A stretch of 64,000 nucleotides of DNA from Methanosphaera stadtmanae (GCA_015062825.1 SUTR01000003.1:22716-86715); one strand, 5' to 3'; positions 47,993 to 64,000 are shown, counted from the stretch's first letter. Notes: generated from the letters alone by a model not told the origin. A program made the numbers and translations.

Positions 47993-49210
47993 ATGGTTGA
48001 ATTATTAGCACCTGCTAAGGATAAGCGTTGTGTAAGTGCGGCATTAAATAATCATGCAGACAGTATATATGTTGGTATAACTGATTATAATATGCGTGCA
48101 AATGTAGCAAATATTTCTCTGGATGATATTAAGGACATTGCAAAACAGTGTCATGATGCTGGTAAATTATTATATGTATGTACAAATACTATTGTAGATG
48201 ATAATCAACTGGATAAATATAAAAAGCAATTATCCAAACTTGAAACATATGATGTAGATGCATTGATAATAGCAGATATGGGTATGATAAATATAGCAAA
48301 GGACTCCTCAATACCCTTGCATTTAAGTGTACAGGCAAACATTACTAATACTGAAGCGTTAAAGTTATATAAGGAATTAGGAGTTACACGTGCAGTTTTA
48401 TCCAGGGAATTGTCATTGAATGATATTAAAGCAATCAAAAAGAAATCTCCAATAGAAATTGAAACATTCATTCATGGGGCAATGTGTGTAGCAGTGTCAG
48501 GCCGGTGTTTTTTAAGTTCATATTTCTATGATAGAAATGCAAACTGTGGTGAATGTCTGCAGCCATGCAGACAGGAATGGAAGATTCAGTCAACTGAGGA
48601 TAAACAGTTAATCCTAACTAATCCTGAGGATAATGCCCTTGAAAAATCACGTCTATTAAGTCCAAGGGATATGTGCATGATAGAACATATACCAGAGCTA
48701 ATTGATGCAAAGATAGATGCATTTAAAATTGAAGGAAGAGCAAGAGCACCAGATTATGTTGCCACAACAGTAAAATGTTATTCAGATGCAATAAAACTAT
48801 ATCAGTCAGGTAATTGGGATAACTTATCATCTGAATATATGCCACAATGGATGAATGAATTGAAAAGTGTATTTAATAGGGGTTTTGACACGGGTTTTTA
48901 CTTTAGAGTTCCGAAAAAAACCAGCTATGACAATCAGGCAACATATAAGAAGGTTGACATAGGACAAATAACCAATTATTACAAAAAGATTAACGTAGCA
49001 GAAGTAAAGCTATGGGATGAATTAAAGATAGGCGATTCCATAATTATTCAGGGAAATAAGACAGGCAGTGTAACTGAAGAAATTACTTCTATGCAAGTTG
49101 ATGGTAAAAATGTAGATTCAATAAGTCAGGGACTTGTTGGAATAAAGTTTAAAAATATTGTACGTGAAAATGATCATGTTTATAAGAAAGTAGAATTAAA
49201 TGGGGAGTAG
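47993..49210 (+). CDS. Peptidase U32-family Fe-S protein
   Basis: [52 protein letters not shown]. Confidence 0.9.
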
Positions 49211-49217
49211 AAATATT

Positions 49218-50009
49218 ATGGTGAAGAAGAAAATAGCAATATATGGAAAAGGTGGAATTGGAAAGTCAACGACTGTATCAAATATAGCTGCCAGCTTTGA
49301 TGATTTGACATTTGTAATAGGATGTGATCCTAAGGCAGATACTACAAGAACTCTTGTTGGAAAACGTATTCCCACAATACTAGATACCATTAGAACAAAT
49401 AAGCAACCGGAGCTTGAAGAAATATTGTATGATGGATATAACAATACGTTATGTGTGGAATCTGGTGGTCCGGAGCCTGGTGTAGGATGTGCTGGACGTG
49501 GTGTAATAGTTGCTATGAAACTGCTTGATCAATTGGGAGCATTTGAATCAGATCCTGACTTGGTCATTTATGATGTATTGGGTGATGTTGTATGTGGTGG
49601 TTTCAGTGTACCGTTAAGGGAAGAATATGCAGATGAAGTATATATTGTAACTAGTGGTGAATACATGTCATTATATGCGGCAAACAATATTGCAAAGGGT
49701 GTTCAAAAGCTTAATGGTAAACTTGGTGGAATAATATGCAATTGTCGTAACGTAGAGGATGAAATAGAAATAGTCACGGAATTTGCAGCATTGCTTAAAA
49801 CGAAGGTTATTGGTGTTATACCAAGAAGTCAACTAGTACAGACTAGTGAATTTCAGGCAAAAACAGTTATTGAAGTATTTCCAGATTCACAGCAGGCCGA
49901 AGAATATCGTAAGCTAACTAAAAATATCATGGAAAATGATGATTTTGTATCACCAACACCTATGCAATCAGATGAATTTGAGAAGTTTTTCTATTCCTAT
50001 GTTCATTAA
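49218..50009 (+). CDS. cfbC: NifH-like CfbC (coenzyme F430 biosynthesis reductase)
   Basis: [31 protein letters not shown] plus [22 protein letters not shown]; short (~263 aa); follows purF-U32. Confidence 0.82.
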
Positions 50010-55891: not shown

Positions 55892-56779
55892 TTATATATA
55901 ATTACCTCTGTTTTGTAATCTTTCCTCTTCAGGTATTTCATTTACATCTATACCTGGCATAGCAGCACCTAGATTTGTTGAAACTTCTGCGATTAATTGA
56001 GCATCTTCATAATGGGCTGTGGCATCAACTATTGCATTGGCTACCAATTCAGGATTTTCAGACTTGAATATTCCTGAACCTACAAAAACACCATCTGCTC
56101 CTAGCTGCATCATTAATGCTGCATCTGCAGGTGTTGCAATTCCTCCTGCTGAAAAGTTAACAACCGGTATTCTTCCCTCTTTTGCTGTTTCAACTAATAA
56201 ATCTCTTGGAGCATTAATCTTTCGAGATATCTGCCAGAGCTCTTCTTCGGTTTTATTTTCAATTTCTCGAATAGCTCCTTTAATGGCTCTCATATGTCTT
56301 ACTGCTTCTACTACATTTCCAGTTCCTGCCTCACCTTTAGTTCTAATCATTGCAGCTCTTTCATCAATTCTTCTTAAAGCTTCACCTAGATTTCTTGCAC
56401 CACAGACGAATGGAATTGTAAATTGTTCCTTGTCAATGTGGAAATCCTCATCAGCCATAGTTAAAACTTCACTTTCATCTATCATATCAACACCAAGTGA
56501 TTGAAGAACTTGTGCCTCTACAAAGTGTCCTATTCTAACCTTTGCCATTACTGGAATGTCAACTGCATCCATTATTTCAATAACCTTCGAAGGGTCTGCC
56601 ATTCTTGCAACTCCACCTGCTTTTCGAATATCTGACGGCACTCCTTCAAGAGCCATTACTGATACTGCTCCGGCATCTTCAGCTATTGCGGCTTGTTCAG
56701 CATTAACAACATCCATGATTACTCCGCCTTTTGTCATTTTTGCAAATCCTTCTTTTAAAACTTTTGTTCCATGTAACAT
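55892..56779 (-). CDS. pdxS: PLP synthase lyase subunit
   Basis: [40 protein letters not shown]. Confidence 0.97.
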
Positions 56780-56828
56780 CTTGTTTCTCCTTTTCATTTT
56801 TTTTTAGTGGTTATAATTATAAATTTGA

Positions 56829-57482
56829 TTATGGATTCTTATTATTTAACAAATATTTTTGTGATATTTTCGGCTTATTTAACCTAACTTTTTTTTTATA
56901 ATCTTGAATTTCCTTTATAAATAATTCATGTATATATGTATCATCTGTTAATTCTGGATGAAATGAAATACCAATGTATTGATTCTCTTTTACAGCTATT
57001 ATTTTTTGATCTAATTCTGATAATATCTTTACATTGTTTCCTATTTTTTCTACACATGGTGCTCGTATAAAGACACCATTAATTATTTTTTTGTCTAGTT
57101 CTATTTCTGATTCAAAAGAAAATTTTTGTCTGCCAAAGGCGTTTCTTTTTACTGAAATGTCCATCAAACCTAATGTGGATTGGTTCTTATTTGTATTCCT
57201 TGATAAAAGTACTAATCCTGCACAAGTTCCTAATATGGGCATGGAACTTTCAGCTATGTATTTATCAAGGCCGGTTTTTTCCAGATGCATGCCAATTGTT
57301 GAACTTTCACCTCCTGAAATAATTAATCCATCACATGGATAAACGTCTTTAAGAGTATTAACTAATGTGGTCTTGCCTTTAATTTTCATATTTTTAAATG
57401 CATTTGATGTCATGATGTCATGTTCTTCTACATCACCCTGTAAATTTAAAATTCCTATGTTTATCATTTTTTCAAAGTCCAT
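56829..57482 (-). CDS. pdxT: PLP synthase glutaminase subunit
   Basis: LQGDVEEH, SGGESST, GTCAGL, RNAFGRQ, FIRAP, FHPEL. Confidence 0.95.
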   Translation of the reverse strand: MDFEKMINIGILNLQGDVEEHDIMTSNAFKNMKIKGKTTLVNTLKDVYPCDGLIISGGESSTIGMHLEKTGLDKYIAESSMPILGTCAGLVLLSRNTNKNQSTLGLMDISVKRNAFGRQKFSFESEIELDKKIINGVFIRAPCVEKIGNNVKILSELDQKIIAVKENQYIGISFHPELTDDTYIHELFIKEIQDYKKKVRLNKPKISQKYLLNNKNP

Positions 57483-57596
57483 ATCTTATGTGTTTAGTGG
57501 TGTATGTCATGTTTATTATTAACTTAATTACAATAATGTTATCTGGATTTCGAAAATGGGGGATAGGGATGAAAAAGTAGGATGTGTTAGTTTTTT

Positions 57597-58460
57597 TTAA
57601 TAATGACTTCTTGGAGTAACTCCCAATGAGAAATCCTGTTCATGTTTTCCAGGTATTCCAAATGCATCTGCCCTACATAATGTACAAGCTCTGAATACTG
57701 GAATTATCTGTTCTACTTCGTCTCTAACTTTACTTACATCATCACAGGTGGGAAATTTATGGCCCTTGAATTTATTTAATGGTATAAGTGGTAAAATATT
57801 CATCAATGAAGCGCCTCTTTGTTTGACTTCATAGGCTATGTCAAGAATGTGTTCATCGTTAACTTCTGGAATCAGCACGGAGTTAACCTTTACTATAATT
57901 CCTGCCTGTGATAAAAGTTCAATTCCTTTAAGTTGATTATTTAGTAAAATTTCAAATCCTTCCTTGCCGTGATATAACTTTCCATGATAATGGATGTCAT
58001 CATATATCTGTATGCCTATATCCGGATCTATTGCATTGATTGTTATTGTAACTGTTTTAACTCCTGATCGGATAATATCATCAATGCAATCTGGTATTAA
58101 TAACCCATTAGTGCTCATACACAAGATCATTTCAGGAAATTCTTCTCCTACTTTTTGGAATAATTTAAATGTGTCTTCATTATATAATGAATCTCCCGGA
58201 CCTGCAACACCAACAACATTTATTGGTTGGCCATCATCTACTACGTTATGTATATGTTTAATGGCATTATCGATATCCATGATTTCAGATGCAACACCTG
58301 GCCTATCTTCTTTGTCATCTAATTTTCTGGTACAGAATCCACATTGTATGTTACATTTTGGTGCAATAGGTATGTGGATTCTTCCTACTTTGTCATGTAT
58401 TTTTTCATTAAAACATGGATGTAACTTGGTAACATGGGAAAAATTTGGATTATCAACCAT
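57597..58460 (-). CDS. nifB: Stand-alone NifB-family radical SAM protein (MarB-like)
   Basis: HPC, CNIQCGFC, EDRPG, AGPGD, TITIN, CTLCRADAFG; no NifX-like domain. Confidence 0.9.
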   Translation of the reverse strand: MVDNPNFSHVTKLHPCFNEKIHDKVGRIHIPIAPKCNIQCGFCTRKLDDKEDRPGVASEIMDIDNAIKHIHNVVDDGQPINVVGVAGPGDSLYNEDTFKLFQKVGEEFPEMILCMSTNGLLIPDCIDDIIRSGVKTVTITINAIDPDIGIQIYDDIHYHGKLYHGKEGFEILLNNQLKGIELLSQAGIIVKVNSVLIPEVNDEHILDIAYEVKQRGASLMNILPLIPLNKFKGHKFPTCDDVSKVRDEVEQIIPVFRACTLCRADAFGIPGKHEQDFSLGVTPRSHY

Positions 58461-58511
58461 ATTTATCACTCCTTATTAATATGGGTGGTGAAAGTGGGAA
58501 TAAAAAATTAT

Positions 58512-59390
58512 CTATATTCCAGAACCTTCACTTTGAATGTTATCTCGTTCAATTTTTTCATTCAACAGTAACTTGTTAATCCATACAGAAGCCCATTCGG
58601 ATAGATCATCCCCATAGAATGGTTTTGGTTTTAGTTTCTTTTCATTGTCAATTACATTGCGAGCTAACTGACGATATACTTCTGCTTGTTCTGAGTCTGG
58701 TGCTCCTTCAATTGTTGTTACTCCATCAAGTTCACAACGTGTAACTGTAGGGGAACGTGGTACGAAGCTTATGACTTCAGTATCTGTCTTTTGGGTAAAG
58801 TCATTTATCATATCTTCCTGTGTTGAATTTTTTATGGAATTTCCTATTACTCCTCCAAGAAGTGCTCCACCCTTGTTGGAATACTTTAATATTCCTTTGA
58901 ATAGGTTATTGGCTGCATAAATTGCCATGTAATCCGATGAAGTTACGGTATATACCTGTTGGGCTACACCTTTTCTAATAGGCATTGCAAATCCACCACA
59001 TACTACATCACCAAGTACGTCATATATGATGATGTCTGGATTGTAGTCATCGATTATGCCGTTGGAATCCAATAATTCTATTGCAGCTATTATTCCACGA
59101 CCTGCACAGCCTACTCCCGGTTCAGGTCCGCCTGCTTCGATACAATGTATGCCATTATATCCTTCATATACTATATTATCAAGATTTCCTGTTTTGTTTC
59201 TGATTGTGTCAAGAACTGTAGGGATTGTTTTACCCTTTCTTAGTGTTGTTGTTGAATCGTTTTTAGGATCACATCCTACCTGCATTACATTATAACCCAA
59301 ATCTGATAATGCTGCGGATAAATTTGATGTTGTAGTAGATTTTCCTATACCTCCCTTTCCATATATTGCTATTTGTTTTGGTTTACTCAC
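58512..59390 (-). CDS. Nitrogenase-like Fe protein (group IV, MarH-like)
   Basis: [25 protein letters not shown]; [30 protein letters not shown] matches MarH as remembered; GTG start with AGGTGA RBS. Confidence 0.88.
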
Positions 59391-59417
59391 TTTTTCACCT
59401 TCCTTTCATTTAATTAA

Positions 59418-60800
59418 TTATAATGGTCCTACGAATGTGGATACCAGATCTTCAAGTAATGTTAATCCTCCATAATATCCACCATAATGATTTACCAGTA
59501 CTGCATTTCCATATATTGGGAATGATGCGCTTACATGACATGCACCCCATTCTTCAAGTGCTGTTGGCTGTTCTAGAGAACTTGACAGTAGGAATGCAAA
59601 TGGTCTGTTGTTTAAATTATTTCTAATCTTATATGTATCTGCTTCAAAGATTATGTCTGGTTTAATTGTTGATTCCAATGAATTATTTATTTCATCAATG
59701 ATTTTCTGTCTTACTTCCAGTGGTGGATTGTCTGTTATTTGAACAATATCTGGAAGATAACCAATTTCATTAGTCAGGAATTTTGTATAGCTTATAGCAT
59801 ATGCTGTATCAGCTACAACTGCAAAATACTGGTTTGGTCTACATAATATTAATGCATCTCCAGGATATTCTGCAAATCTATAAAACCATTCTTCCTTTTC
59901 TGTTATAAAATCATTCACGATATCTTTGTTAATGTTTAACTTTTCAGCAACTCTATATAATAGGGATGATGTTTGTTTTGCTCCAACAGGAACACCTGGG
60001 AATGTGATGAAGGGTGTTCCAAATTTTTCTTTTAATTTTTCGGCTGCTCTTACTCCAATCCATGGATTTAAAACTATGTTATATTCAGCTTTAGGTATGT
60101 TTTTAATATTTTCCAATCCGTCACCATCACCAAATATTACATTTGCCTTAATTCCAATAGATGCAAATAATTTCTTCAATTCATACAGATCTCCTTTCCA
60201 GAAAACATGATTATAAGGAACTACTCCAAATATATTCACAGTACCTTTTTCAATTTCCTGTGTTTCTAATAAGTTACTGTCTATAACGGCATCCCAGAAT
60301 AAATTATGTCCTTCAAGTGAATGAGCTTTAAATCCAGGAGCATTTACATGTATTATTGGATGTTCATCTTCATAATATTCAACTATACTGTCAACATCAT
60401 CACCGATAAGTGATGGTACACATCCTGATATAACTACATAAAAGTTGCTGTTAAACAGTTGTATTGTGGAGTCAACCAGATTATTTAATTTATCTTCTCC
60501 TCCAAGTATTACATGTTCTTCTACTAGACATGAACAAGGAGTTGCAGTTCCTCCTTCATTTACTCCACATGATTCTCCACCGGCATATAGTGTTCCAAAT
60601 AGATTTCCCACTCCACATCCTGCTCCGGAGTGTAATATTGGCACAGCATTTTTCAATCCCAGTACTGTTGCATATACTCCAGCTAATGCACATCCATATC
60701 GTGGTGCTTCTACAGAATTTTGTTCTAGATTATCTACATTTGATTCAATGGTAGGTTGATTGAAAAACTCTTTTTGTATTTTTTCATAATTTTCTGACAT
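59418..60800 (-). CDS. Nitrogenase-like component 1 beta subunit (NifK/MarK-like)
   Basis: PRYGC, HSGAGC, SGCVPSLIGDD P-cluster cysteines; GGEDKL; start at ATG 60800 behind an AGGTGA RBS that overlaps the D stop. Confidence 0.88.
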   Translation of the reverse strand: MSENYEKIQKEFFNQPTIESNVDNLEQNSVEAPRYGCALAGVYATVLGLKNAVPILHSGAGCGVGNLFGTLYAGGESCGVNEGGTATPCSCLVEEHVILGGEDKLNNLVDSTIQLFNSNFYVVISGCVPSLIGDDVDSIVEYYEDEHPIIHVNAPGFKAHSLEGHNLFWDAVIDSNLLETQEIEKGTVNIFGVVPYNHVFWKGDLYELKKLFASIGIKANVIFGDGDGLENIKNIPKAEYNIVLNPWIGVRAAEKLKEKFGTPFITFPGVPVGAKQTSSLLYRVAEKLNINKDIVNDFITEKEEWFYRFAEYPGDALILCRPNQYFAVVADTAYAISYTKFLTNEIGYLPDIVQITDNPPLEVRQKIIDEINNSLESTIKPDIIFEADTYKIRNNLNNRPFAFLLSSSLEQPTALEEWGACHVSASFPIYGNAVLVNHYGGYYGGLTLLEDLVSTFVGPL

Positions 60801-60809
60801 ATCTATCAC

Positions 60810-62477
60810 CTACTTTGAAAGAGCATAATCATCATCTAGTTCTTTATCTAGGAAATACAATGGATCTTCTTGTTCGTACCACCAATCCTTGTAAGCGGGC
60901 TTGGTTTTCTCAGATAAAGTTTTTTGATATGCTTTGTTTTGGAATGCTCTTAATAAAAATTCTCCGAATGCCACTGCTCCTGAATAACCTGATTGTGCAC
61001 TTTCAGGTGCAGGGTCTCCTCTTAATGAATGTATTCTTGTAACTTGAGTATCACGTTTCCAGCTTCCTCCCTGGAATGGACATGTTAATGTTAGGTCTGG
61101 TTTTAATGATGCCGTTACATTTGCTTGTTCGGCTGCTTGGAATGTATTAACCATTAAATTAAAGTCTCCATTTCTTTCTATGATATCTGCCAGTTCATCT
61201 ATGATCAGTTCATCAAAATCTTGTGCCATTGCAGCAGGTGTATCTAATCCCAATTCATCAAAGTATGGCATTTGGGATACTAATCTTCCCTGTCCTAATG
61301 CTCCTAATACCTGTAATTTTTCACCATTCTTACGGGTATTGGATATGTTGATGAATTCATTTCGGATTGAATTTAATTTTGGTTCCCATTTGGCTCTTTC
61401 TTCTTTAATTAATTCTTCTACTTCCTCTTCTTTTCCTGTGTATTTACCAATTTCTCTTAACCATCCATCAGTATTTTCAAATCCTGTTGGTGTTGGATAT
61501 AAGAAGTAAGGTACGCCAAATTTTTCTTCTAATCCTCTGGATAAATAATCGGTATATGTTGGACATATTGGTGCTGTTACTGCTGCTTCAGATAACTTTT
61601 CAAATTGTTCTACCGTGGCAAATTCGGGTATGAAATTTACTTTTAAGCCTATTTTTCCAAGTAATCTTTCTATTTCTAGTCTGTCCTGCCATGTGTATGA
61701 TAACATACTTGCTACATTCACAAGATCTTTTTGTTTTTTCTCAGGTTTTTTTACAAGATATTTAAGTACTGCATGCCAAAATGCATCGTATCCAGTTTGA
61801 ACGAGTCTACTTCGTATACCTTCACAATGTACTGGTACGATTGTTGCATCTATTTCTGGCTGTATATCATCTACTACTCCTTCTATATCCTCTCCTATAA
61901 TTCCTGTTGTACATGATGTAAGAATGAATATTGCTTTAGGATTGTATCTTTCCTGTGCTTCAATTATTGTATCTCTTAATTTTTCACCAGCACCATATAC
62001 CACATCATCTTGTTGTAAGTTTGTTGTCATCCAATTCAACTTATATTCTGCTGGTCTTCCCAAAGCTTCCGGAACTCCTCTGAACAATTCTCTGTAACCT
62101 AATGCTGATGAAGAACATCCTACTGGTGCATTGAATATCACTACTGCATCTCTTATGGTACTTACACGTACTGCTAAATAGAAGTTTAATACACAGCCAC
62201 CTGATTGTTGAAATCTTCTTTCATCCATTGTTACATTTTGATTTACAGCATCCTTTAGTAAATCTGATGCTTTACCATAGTAGATATTTGTTCCATGTGC
62301 TCTCTGCTCACGATTGGGGCTTGTAATTTTATCCAAATCTATTGGCTGAGCTTCGGGTTTATTATCAAGATCTACTCCTAATATTTGTTTAATTTTTTTT
62401 CTTTTACATGAGCCTATTTTGAATGTGCCATGTTCTTTGTGATTACATTGATTATTATGATTTCCTTTTGGATTCAT
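60810..62477 (-). CDS. Nitrogenase-like component 1 alpha subunit (NifD/MarD-like)
   Basis: QQSGGC, PVGC, TSCTTGIIGED, HCEG, PICPTY, RIHSL; REQR..GKASDL N-terminal motif; AAGGAG RBS. Confidence 0.9.
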   Translation of the reverse strand: MNPKGNHNNQCNHKEHGTFKIGSCKRKKIKQILGVDLDNKPEAQPIDLDKITSPNREQRAHGTNIYYGKASDLLKDAVNQNVTMDERRFQQSGGCVLNFYLAVRVSTIRDAVVIFNAPVGCSSSALGYRELFRGVPEALGRPAEYKLNWMTTNLQQDDVVYGAGEKLRDTIIEAQERYNPKAIFILTSCTTGIIGEDIEGVVDDIQPEIDATIVPVHCEGIRSRLVQTGYDAFWHAVLKYLVKKPEKKQKDLVNVASMLSYTWQDRLEIERLLGKIGLKVNFIPEFATVEQFEKLSEAAVTAPICPTYTDYLSRGLEEKFGVPYFLYPTPTGFENTDGWLREIGKYTGKEEEVEELIKEERAKWEPKLNSIRNEFINISNTRKNGEKLQVLGALGQGRLVSQMPYFDELGLDTPAAMAQDFDELIIDELADIIERNGDFNLMVNTFQAAEQANVTASLKPDLTLTCPFQGGSWKRDTQVTRIHSLRGDPAPESAQSGYSGAVAFGEFLLRAFQNKAYQKTLSEKTKPAYKDWWYEQEDPLYFLDKELDDDYALSK

Positions 62478-62771
62478 ATTTCTAACTCCTTATTAAATGT
62501 AAGTTTTTAACTTTTATTGATTATGAATTAATCTTATGGAAAGTTTTAAGGAATGAAATCTTTTTTCCAATAAAAACATAATATTTGAATATATTTAACA
62601 CTTTAAAGAATATGCAAGTTATATAATAATGTTTAATGAGTAAATGAAATATTATTTTTAAGCGAACTTTTTTTGTAATCAAATTATGATATCTTTTAGA
62701 ATATTAAATATATCAGTATCATGTTTTAAATTACTGTAATTCTAACGTTTTGTTAGATATAATAACCTATG

Positions 62772-62804
62772 TGTCAAAGGCTGTCAAAAATAGTATTTAT
62801 ATAA
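62772..62804 (-). promoter_or_regulatory. Candidate D-K-H-B promoter: TATA box plus TGTCAAA direct repeat
   Basis: Minus-strand TTATATAAA at about 62796-804; TGTCAAA at 62772-78 and 62782-88 (10-bp period). Confidence 0.35.
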
Positions 62805-62937
62805 GATCGCTTTATGAGGGTAAAACGGTTTTAATTTACAAAGTAATTAACAAATTTTAGCAATTTTTTTTACTTAAACTTATTAAGATACTATGACAGA
62901 GTTTACGAAAATTTACTTTTCCATTAATTTCCATATA

Positions 62938-62996
62938 AGATAACAATTGTTATATAACATTGTTATCTAGGTATACTATTAATCAAAGGTAGTATA
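62938..62996. promoter_or_regulatory. Tandem palindromes ATAACA-N(2/1)-TGTTAT around a TTATATAA box, plus a TATACTA/TAGTATA inverted repeat
   Basis: ATAACAATTGTTAT 62940-53 (perfect), ATAACATTGTTAT 62954-66, inverted repeat arms at 62972-78 and 62990-96. Confidence 0.5.
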
Positions 62997-63145
62997 TAAA
63001 TGTTCCCCTTATAAGTCTTTTTTTTATTAAGCACGCTTTTCCGTTAACTTAATATATTATGAAAATTCAAATATGAAAAATAATCGGGAAATAGGAAAAA
63101 CAGTTAATATAAAAAAAACTAATAAATTATTTTTAAATGATTAAA

Positions 63146-64000
63146 ATGGAATTAGAAGACAAAATTAAAAGATTAAAAAATTATTTACGAAATAAAAAAT
63201 CAGTACTTGGATTTAGTGCTGGTTCTGATAGTACATTAATAGCATACATATTATCAAAGGTCAGTCCTGATTCTTTATTGGTTACTATCAATAACAATAT
63301 GATGTCGGATGAATTTATCGAATACACTAAAAAACAGGCAGCCAAATTCAATTTGAAACATAAAGTAATCAACTTAGACTTTTTAACAGATGAAATATTT
63401 CAAAACAATGGGAAAGAAAGATGTTATGAATGTCGTAAGCTAATGTATTATAACATTCAACAGTTGCCTGAATTCCAGGAGTATGAATACTTCCTTGAAG
63501 GTACAAATATAACTGATCTTCTTGAGGATAGGCCTGGAATACTGGTGCTGGATATGTTTAATATGACAAGTCCCCTTGTAGAATGTGGCATTACCAAGGA
63601 TGATGTATTTGACATGATACAATATTTCAATCTGGAATATTCATTTGACACTACCTGCTTGGCAACACGTATAAAAACCAATCAGAAAGTTGATAGTGAA
63701 AGGTTGAAAATGATTCATGATGCAGAAGCATTTGTCAGGTCCAACGTTGAGCAGGAAAATATACGTGTACGATTTGATGACTTCAATGCTATGATAACTG
63801 TAGACAATCCGTTGGATATTCTGGATGAAGAACTATTGATTAAGTTACGTAATAAAATTCAGAATATTGGATTTAAAAAGGTATTCCTGGATATAACAGG
63901 ATATGAGAAAACAAAGCTCATAGAAAGCATTGATGATGATGGCGATTACTATTATCAATTGCCATATAATATAGATCTTCTGAAGACTAAGGAAAAACTT
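63146..64000 (+). CDS. LarE-family PP-loop sulfur transferase (runs off window end; not in ORF track)
   Basis: Hand translation: FSAGSDS PP-loop, RCYECRK, EGTNITDLLEDRPG, TCLATRI; possible upstream ATG at 63137. Confidence 0.82.
   Translation, partial: MELEDKIKRLKNYLRNKKSVLGFSAGSDSTLIAYILSKVSPDSLLVTINNNMMSDEFIEYTKKQAAKFNLKHKVINLDFLTDEIFQNNGKERCYECRKLMYYNIQQLPEFQEYEYFLEGTNITDLLEDRPGILVLDMFNMTSPLVECGITKDDVFDMIQYFNLEYSFDTTCLATRIKTNQKVDSERLKMIHDAEAFVRSNVEQENIRVRFDDFNAMITVDNPLDILDEELLIKLRNKIQNIGFKKVFLDITGYEKTKLIESIDDDGDYYYQLPYNIDLLKTKEKL

Follow-up and report, generated by a model that had tools for sequence, protein, structure and literature searches.

A Group IV nitrogenase-like operon with a dedicated NifB paralogue in the Methanosphaera lineage: a putative reductase of organosulfur compounds

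To our knowledge, the only Group IV nitrogenase-like (NFL) enzymes with assigned functions are the methylthio-alkane reductase (MAR), the isethionate reductase (ISR), the F430-synthesis enzyme CfbCD and, tentatively, Nfa. The MAR of Rhodospirillum rubrum, solved as PDB entries 9FMG and 9D9U (PMC12552129), carries a P-cluster and an [Fe8S9C] cluster that is made by MarB or NifB without NifEN (PMC12552129, PMC13753814). Only Group IV-C has been shown to possess MAR activity; the tested systems of Groups IV-A, D, E, and F were inactive, and all the sets were bacterial (PMC13753814). A 2026 review treats no archaeal NFL system besides CfbCD and says that many methanogens have no NFL systems; it names as the main barriers that genetically tractable hosts are lacking and that genetic context is uninformative for Group IV (PMC13474568). 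In a phylogenomic survey, Pi et al. (2022) placed archaeal Group IV NifDK nested among the bacterial ones, found MAR and Nfa only in bacteria, and knew of no nitrogen-fixing archaeon with nifHDKB (PMC9447857). Here, we describe an NFL operon, nflD-nflK-nflH-nflB, that spans positions 57597-62477 on the minus strand of a 64,000-nt stretch of DNA from Methanosphaera stadtmanae (GCA_015062825.1 SUTR01000003.1:22716-86715), called the window below. A first-pass annotation had taken this operon for an archaeal MAR-like cluster. We find instead that it belongs to a separate, methanogen-centred clade that also has members in some anaerobic bacteria, and we lean, with slightly better than even confidence, towards an ATP-driven nitrogenase-like reductase that would free sulfur from an organosulfur substrate.

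Calling open reading frames (ORFs), we found four co-oriented genes.

60810..62477, minus strand: nflD, alpha-type catalytic subunit, 555 aa (PF00148, 3.6e-67)
59418..60800, minus strand: nflK, beta-type subunit, 460 aa from its ATG (PF00148 Oxidored_nitro, 1.6e-61)
58512..59390, minus strand: nflH, MarH-type Fe protein, 292 aa (PF00142 Fer4_NifH, 1.8e-101)
57597..58460, minus strand: nflB, radical-SAM NifB core without the NifX domain, 287 aa (Radical_SAM and TIGR01290)

The ORFs of nflK and nflB open further upstream (60809-59418, 463 aa, and 58469-57597, respectively), with ATG starts at 60800 and 58460; the cysteine numbering of NflK given below follows the 463-aa ORF. Counted from the ATG starts, the genes are separated by 9 nt (D-K), 27 nt (K-H), and 51 nt (H-B), exactly as first annotated, and the gene calls of identical metagenome contigs use the same starts and gaps. 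The ATG of nflD is preceded by an AAGGAG ribosome-binding site and that of nflB by an AAGGAG-type site, AAGGAGTG. NflD begins with a His/Cys-rich extension of 44 aa (NHNNQCNHKEH...GSCKRKK; residues 1-44, window 62345-62477), a feature of the NflD subclade of the window. NflH has the P-loop and the cluster ligands Cys95 and Cys131. A T6 run follows the nflH stop codon ahead of the nflB ribosome-binding site (window 58500-58511), and an A8/T-rich stretch follows nflB (window 57585-57596). Given these two stretches, the transcription of nflB may be partly uncoupled from that of D-K-H.

The D, K, and H proteins all scored below the cut-offs of the curated NCBIfam models for Nif, Vnf, Anf, NifE/N, Bch, and Cfb. 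The nifD equivalog model gave NflD 123 against a cut-off of 653.6, the nifK model gave NflK 51 against 427, and the nifH model gave NflH 384.9 against 394.4. Searching the window with D and K by tblastn, we found no further D/K-type gene; hence, the window has no nifE/N. It also has no NifI and no NifX, and a scan of all its frames for the PII signature motifs, which we take to be those of PROSITE, found none. These results bear out the first-pass annotation, which had reported no nifE/N and no nifI1/I2 or glnB in the window. By sequence, the D-K-H-B operon is a Group IV NFL system, namely a NifH-type Fe protein with paired NifD/NifK-type subunits outside Nif/Vnf/Anf, Bch/Chl, and NifEN, and the B+H+D+K set without EN in the window is distinct from CfbC/D.

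Performing a PDB search, we find that the best matches of all chains, by a wide margin, are those of R. rubrum MarDKH in 9FMG and 9D9U. NflD matched MarD (9fmg_A) at 3.7e-70 and NifD at about 1e-27. NflK matched MarK (9d9u_C) at 2.1e-83 and Nif at about 1e-21, while NflH matched MarH (9fmg_D) at 7.5e-113 and NifH at 3e-86. Pairwise identity to R. rubrum Mar was 33% for D, 35% for K, and 60% for H, and NflH shares with MarH a C-terminal extension that NifH does not have. Thus, the first-pass description of an H subunit close to MarH beside related but divergent D and K subunits was accurate. An AlphaFold (AF2) model of NflD (pLDDT 72.5, pTM 0.80) was compared with solved structures by Foldseek; this predicted structure matched MarD 9fmg_A best (TM-score 0.85, E 1e-29) and the NifD chains at TM-scores of 0.6-0.7.

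The operon resembles MarBHDK (Group IV-C) in the architecture of an H dimer with a D2K2 core, in the six P-cluster cysteines and the cofactor cysteine, in having no NifEN (here, in the window), in the NifB-type maturase of the cluster, and in the sulfur-metabolism context. It differs in gene order (B-H-D-K in Mar, D-K-H-B here), in its archaeal rather than bacterial host, and in the SsuA-type importers and CysK/CysE that accompany relatives of the window family. It differs further in its separate clade with these low D and K identities, in changed pocket residues, and in an extra invariant His483. The likenesses raise a question of whether the operon encodes a true archaeal MAR, which would convert dimethyl sulfide (DMS), ethyl methyl sulfide (EMS), or methylthioethanol to methanethiol and methane, ethane, or ethylene. 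MarDKH is the closest characterised relative, the BHDK set has no EN, the H subunit is of the MarH type, the context of the locus itself is methionine/homocysteine-related sulfur metabolism, and DMS occurs in gut habitats (PMC13753814). Nevertheless, we regard a true archaeal MAR as quite unlikely. The D subunit lies outside the clade with MarD, it does not have the residues His429, Arg428, Trp195, His375, and Cys73 that line or ligate the MAR cofactor (PMC12552129), and the non-IV-C Group IV systems that were tested all had no physiologically relevant MAR activity (PMC13753814).

The position of D was determined with a maximum-likelihood (ML) tree (IQ-TREE, LG+C20, 70 rows) rooted on K subunits; the K and H subunits were compared pairwise and to the PDB. 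We used K subunits as the outgroup because an NCBIfam scan of 20 representatives of neighbouring clades for true NifD/NifE found none over any cut-off. The R. rubrum MarD and MarK sequences for the tree were rebuilt from printed PDB alignments and reproduced the published residue numbers. The window D fell in a 17-row clade with a support of 100/100, which formed with three deeper representatives a 20-row clade (100/94). Its sister (92/85) is a clade of 16 rows (100/100) to which MarD and the protein P0140 belong. The cysteines of P0140 at 49/52/59/77/80/145/256 equal the published Endomicrobium proavitum NfaD numbering minus 1, its relatives are Clostridia and termite-gut Treponema, and E. 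proavitum nests within the Firmicutes Group IV-Nfa (PMC9447857). We took P0140 as the probable NfaD-like (IV-A) anchor because of its cysteine pattern (PMC13474568) and the taxa of its relatives.

Joining the family D to the MarD subclade was rejected by the approximately unbiased (AU) test (delta lnL 108, p 7e-6), the tested grouping having been named after the tree was seen. Thus, the family D stands outside the clade with MarD (IV-C) and the probable IV-A anchor and is not a member of the MAR clade. With R. rubrum MarD as the representative of Group IV-C, membership of NflD in that group is rejected by the ML tree, whose 100/100 MarD clade excludes the family, together with the AU test. Judged by the probable anchor P0140, membership in Group IV-A is rejected as well, as P0140 groups with MarD and not with the window family. 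In summary, the idea of a MAR-like sulfur reductase stood as far as the closest solved relative and the sulfur context are concerned; its placement in the MAR clade fell with the tree and with the absent His429 ligand, and the pocket differs.

Examining the active site, we find that all six P-cluster cysteines are kept (D Cys95/121/189 and K Cys40/65/130, corresponding to MarD 66/91/158 and MarK 32/56/121), as is the cofactor cysteine (NflD Cys305, MarD Cys270), and that these seven are conserved across the family. The rest of the pocket departs from MAR. MarD Cys73-Gln74 is Ala-Arg in the window D, the Arg at Gln74 being invariant in the family, and MarD His194-Trp195 is Leu-Val in the window and, in the family, Leu/Ile followed by Val (Ile or Met in three rows). 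In the window family, MarD Phe199 is replaced by Tyr and His375 by Asp, with Glu in the deeper representatives. MarD Arg428-His429 is replaced across the family by an invariant Cys466-Pro467, so that the loop-I ligand His429 is not kept. The 16-row MarD/NfaD-like clade has Trp195 in 15 of 16 rows, Phe199 in 15, His375 in 12, Arg428 in 12, and His429 in 13.

The family has an added invariant histidine, His483, in a TR(I/V)H(S/A)LRGD motif. It lies 22 residues after the KPD motif, compared with 23 for the VnfD ligand His423; MarD has Pro there. The deepest relative, P0123, has His-Pro in place of the Cys-Pro of the family, a hint that position 466 is a cofactor ligand. L-type clusters held by two cysteines have been reported in the activation complex of methyl-coenzyme M reductase (MCR; PMC13474568). 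Judging from these residues, either Cys466 or His483 is a candidate for the second cofactor ligand. In the close relative P0002, the first P-cluster cysteine is replaced by Tyr.

The conserved clusters also bring up a nitrogen-acquiring enzyme, Nfa-like or proto-nitrogenase-like, that would reduce N2 or nitrogen oxides without NifEN. The operon shares with the Mo/V/Fe nitrogenases (Groups I-III) the fold, the P-cluster ligands, the cofactor cysteine, and NifB as the cofactor synthase. Its candidate His483 lies near the position of the cofactor histidine (Av NifD His442, VnfD His423), albeit in a weak alignment (E 1.7), and the 22-residue spacing comes close to that of VnfD. It also has a dedicated NifB, and the Group IV-A system of E. 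proavitum is a precedent (PMC13474568). That system, NfaBHDK, is implicated in N2 fixation and shares with the window the BHDK set without NifEN and the P-cluster and cofactor cysteines. Several observations make a nitrogen enzyme very unlikely. The D subunit is not in the NfaD-like clade, whose NfaD-like rows keep Trp195, His375, and Arg-His, all missing from the window family. At the positions equivalent to the nitrogenase residues Val70, Gln191, and His195, which we mapped via MarD following PMC12552129, the window has Ala-Arg, Val, and Tyr; hence, the nitrogen-fixing residues of NifD are absent. The Nif models all stay below their cut-offs, those for nifD and nifK far below, and the TM-scores with NifD chains trail that with MarD. 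The window has no NifEN, no NifX, and no PII/nifI motif, there is no NrpR-type GGAA-N6-TTCC site upstream of the operon, and the neighbourhood consists of sulfur genes rather than nitrogen-regulatory ones. The window has just one GGAA-N6-TTCC site; it falls within cfbC and probably occurs by chance.

We also analysed the NifB of the operon. NflB matched TIGR01290 (nifB) at 6.4e-87 and 292 bits, over positions 7-290 of 441 of the profile; the score is below the cut-off of 343.65 and the coverage is limited to the core because the NifX domain is absent. All NifB motifs (HPC, CX3CX2C, EDRP, AGPG, TxTxN, and CX2CRADAFG) are present in the translation. B is adjacent to D-K-H only in the closest relatives of the window and in some bacteria, and the closest named homologues of NflB are the NifBs of Methanosphaera, with 67-77% identity. 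The housekeeping NifB of Methanosphaera forms the 3′ end of the methanogenesis-marker (mmp; MCR-activation) cluster, in the order DUF2117, AIRS, DUF8179, DUF2102, DUF2112, BcrAD, DUF2113, NifB, followed by an IF-2B-family gene. Two metagenome-assembled genomes (MAGs), RUG14233 (D 92% identical) and SRP222994_co1_512 (D 87%), carry D-K-H-B and have a second NifB on another contig, directly after DUF2113. This two-NifB observation was made twice, depends on MAG binning, and was reached via the neighbouring DUF2113 gene. The NifB tree groups the operon-linked copies together (100/96), inside the NifB radiation of Methanosphaera and separate from the mmp-linked copies.

Taken together, the NifB tree and the presence of both copies in two MAGs indicate that nflB is a paralogue dedicated to the operon, derived from the housekeeping NifB of the host lineage by duplication. 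The position of nflB in this tree also places the organism, a rumen methanogen, in the Methanosphaera lineage. The same data rule out that nflB is the sole housekeeping NifB adjoining the operon by chance. Import of nflB together with D-K-H is ruled out by its position inside the Methanosphaera NifB radiation. A lineage-specific duplicate supports the dependence of the enzyme on the NifB product and is an independent line of genomic evidence for it.

The origin of nflB bears on another explanation, in which the operon would encode a NifEN-like scaffold or carrier that matures or stores L-clusters for the MCR-activation complex or Mtr and is not a catalyst. Methanogens need L-type clusters (PMC12176620; bioRxiv 10.64898/2026.07.03.736320), the operon NifB is derived from the mmp-linked housekeeping copy, and the family occurs mostly in methanogens. 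The family is, however, also present in non-methanogenic bacteria (Geotalea, Negativicutes, Clostridia, Acidobacteriota) and did not turn up among named Methanosphaera that keep the mmp-NifB cluster. Moreover, the housekeeping NifB persists beside the operon copy, and the operon has its own Fe protein and the full set of P-cluster ligands. We consider a scaffold the least probable of the explanations weighed here.

The extent of the family was checked by searching 5.8 billion clusters, which gave more than 120 proteins with 61-98% identity. The archaeal names among the cluster matches were Methanobrevibacter, Methanobacterium, Methanovirga, Methanoregula, Methanosarcina, Methanothrix, Methanospirillum, and Methanoperedenaceae; the bacterial names were Clostridia, Negativicutes, and Oscillochloris. 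Among species-representative genomes, 52 of 58 family loci were archaeal (33 Methanobacteriaceae, 9 Methanosarcinaceae). The six bacterial loci belonged to Geotalea, Acidobacteriota, Planctomycetota, deltaproteobacterial MAGs, and a Syntrophomonadaceae bacterium. A 59th locus (Oscillospiraceae bacterium, 30% identity) is a non-member and was excluded from the counts. Against representatives at 50% identity of 15 billion proteins, the scores fell from 778, 487, and 472 bits to 279 bits or less, a drop that marks the family as discrete. Mean column identity across 30 archaeal and bacterial members was 66%. The gene set is ordinary for methanogens and not peculiar to this genome, contrary to the first impression that it was unusual for a methanogen; homologues of 63-92% identity are spread widely through Methanobacteriaceae, Methanosarcina, Methanothrix, Methanoregula, Methanospirillum, and Methanoperedenaceae. 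Nor is it new to archaea, as archaeal Group IV NifDK had been noted (PMC9447857).

In several methanogen genomes, paralogous D-K pairs stand next to one another, two or three to a genome, and share one H; these pairs show 37-76% identity to the window D. Such multiple pairs suggest isozymes that differ in substrate.

As a rule, Group IV NFL genes are found together with sulfur genes (PMC13753814, PMC13474568), and the neighbourhood of the operon and of its relatives agrees with this. On identical contigs (L060-L063) that run past the window, the divergent upstream block of the locus encodes a LarE-like protein, the homocysteine-biosynthesis protein HcyBio, a ThiS-like carrier, an SDF transporter, and ThiI. 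About 4-6 kb beyond the right end of the window on the same contig, a group II intron reverse transcriptase (RVT_N, RVT_1, GIIM; L060 3823-5397) interrupts the gene of the SDF-family transporter. Methanobacterium-type loci run in the order ThiS, NifX-like, D, K, H, CysK, CysE, with SsuA/NMT1-type ATP-binding cassette (ABC) importers nearby. In a Methanosarcina, a Negativicutes bacterium, and M. arboriphilus, NMT1 binding proteins likewise lie beside D-K. By raw counts over the 35 family loci of at least 10 kb, H was adjacent in 27, CysK in 9, and CysE in 8; at least one sulfur or transport gene of the query set was present at 18 of the 35 (raw counts, with no chance control).

The importers and CysK/CysE of the relatives agree better with a substrate that is not volatile and with sulfide as the product than with the volatile substrates and the methanethiol of MAR, which is a further point against a true archaeal MAR. 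Another system for comparison is IsrBHDK, the isethionate reductase of Rhodobacter capsulatus (Group IV-F), a nitrogenase-like enzyme that obtains sulfur anaerobically from an organosulfur compound taken up by the cell, a role like the one proposed here. Relatives of the window system have transport genes of the sulfonate type nearby. In ISR, the ligands of the P-cluster and of the cofactor have diverged, and IsrB is a radical SAM protein of the BciD-like kind and not NifB (PMC13474568, PMC11423573); in contrast, the window system keeps these ligands and has a true NifB core.

We propose the following mechanism on the strength of the conserved ligands and the neighbouring genes. An NflH dimer with a [4Fe-4S] cluster would pass electrons, in an ATP-dependent manner, to an NflD2K2 core with a P-type cluster at the D/K interface. 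In the D subunit would sit an all-iron cofactor of the [8Fe-9S-C] type, made by NifB; the NifB paralogue of the operon would load it in place without NifEN, and Cys305 and either Cys466 or His483 would bind it. There, an organosulfur substrate, imported in many relatives, would be reductively cleaved to reduced sulfur (sulfide or a small thiol), and the sulfur released would feed cysteine and homocysteine synthesis. The data show the gene content, the conserved ligands, the phylogenetic position, the gene context, and the NifB duplication; we infer the identity of the cofactor, the substrate class, the products, and the regulation. A fuller version is possible, and we hold it only tentatively. 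In it, a new methanogen-centred enzyme would bear a carbide-containing all-iron cofactor on Cys305 and Cys466 or on a nitrogenase-type His, this cofactor would be supplied by a NifB copy duplicated from the MCR-activation NifB, and imported thiols, sulfides, or sulfonate-type compounds would be reductively cleaved to sulfide. That the operon releases hydrocarbons independently of MCR, as the first-pass annotation had ventured, is pure speculation.

Several points weigh against a sulfur-freeing reductase as drawn here. Concerning the second ligand, the C-terminal-domain profile aligns the His483 region only weakly to VnfD in the PDB, and loop 466-487 of the NflD model has a pLDDT below 50. At D residue 53, in the TCPNREQR motif, the window subclade has Ser, compared with Cys53 in more than 90% of the family, so this subclade may not be like the other members. 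In the tree, P0140 as the IV-A anchor is known by its cysteine pattern and the taxa of its relatives, not by name. Regarding the substrate, the locus itself has neither an ABC importer nor CysK/CysE, and guilt by association is weak, as ABC transporters are common neighbours by chance.

These last points also speak for a non-sulfur substrate, another small molecule or organic compound, with the sulfur neighbours being coincidental. The pocket is unlike that of every characterised NFL enzyme, and genetic context has so far been of little help for Group IV (PMC13474568). On the other hand, CysK, CysE, ThiS, and SsuA-type genes recur beside D-K in distant archaea and bacteria. We judge a non-sulfur substrate unlikely and continue to favour a reductase that would free sulfur from an organosulfur compound.

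Three further features of the window complete the picture.

49200-50009, plus strand: cfbC, Fe protein of F430 synthesis, a second NifH homologue (CfbC cut-off passed, 419.7 against 402)
62478..63136, no strand: AT-rich divergent intergenic region of 659 nt between nflD and the larE-like gene
63137..64000, plus strand: larE-like gene for a PP-loop sulfur transferase, truncated at the end of the window (341 aa where the full contig is available)

The separate cfbC confirms that, as first annotated, F430 synthesis has its own Fe protein. CfbCD (Group IV-B) is the other nitrogenase-like system of methanogens, and its Fe protein is 49% identical to NflH. It differs in that CfbD forms a homodimer, has no K subunit, and carries only a [4Fe-4S] cluster, and in that NflH and NflD stay below the cut-offs of the CfbC (354 against 402) and CfbD (51 against 268) models. 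The start of cfbC is overlapped by 11 nt by a gene of the U32 peptidase family (47993-49210, plus strand), TrhP/UbiU-like and below the cut-off. The 659-nt intergenic region presumably holds the promoters of nflD and of the larE-like gene, whose product scored 169.3 against the cut-off of 150 of TIGR00268 (LarE). Tandem palindromes, AGATAACAAT and ATTGTTATCT, lie with their neighbours at window 62933-62968 in this region and may be an operator. Directly downstream of nflB are pdxT and pdxS, encoding pyridoxal phosphate (PLP) synthase (window 55892-57482, minus strand). In rumen Methanobrevibacter relatives, pdxT/pdxS lie directly upstream of nflD, so the adjacency is kept in another arrangement.

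The archaeal genes of this kind were known; as far as could be found, the identity of the clade, its signature, its context, and its dedicated NifB have not been described in the literature. Members of the clade abound in methanogens, among them the genetically tractable genus Methanosarcina, and the clade keeps its 66% mean column identity across both domains. With a cofactor pocket unlike that of any characterised relative, this conserved clade is a good candidate for a new reaction. The operon may explain how rumen and gut methanogens obtain sulfur from organic compounds. If the proposal is true, the enzyme would be a second archaeal user of NifB-made clusters beside the MCR-activation complex. 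In the fuller, tentative version, it would also give methanogens a second, MCR-independent route able to release small hydrocarbons, and it would represent a previously unknown mode of sulfur acquisition in guts and sediments.

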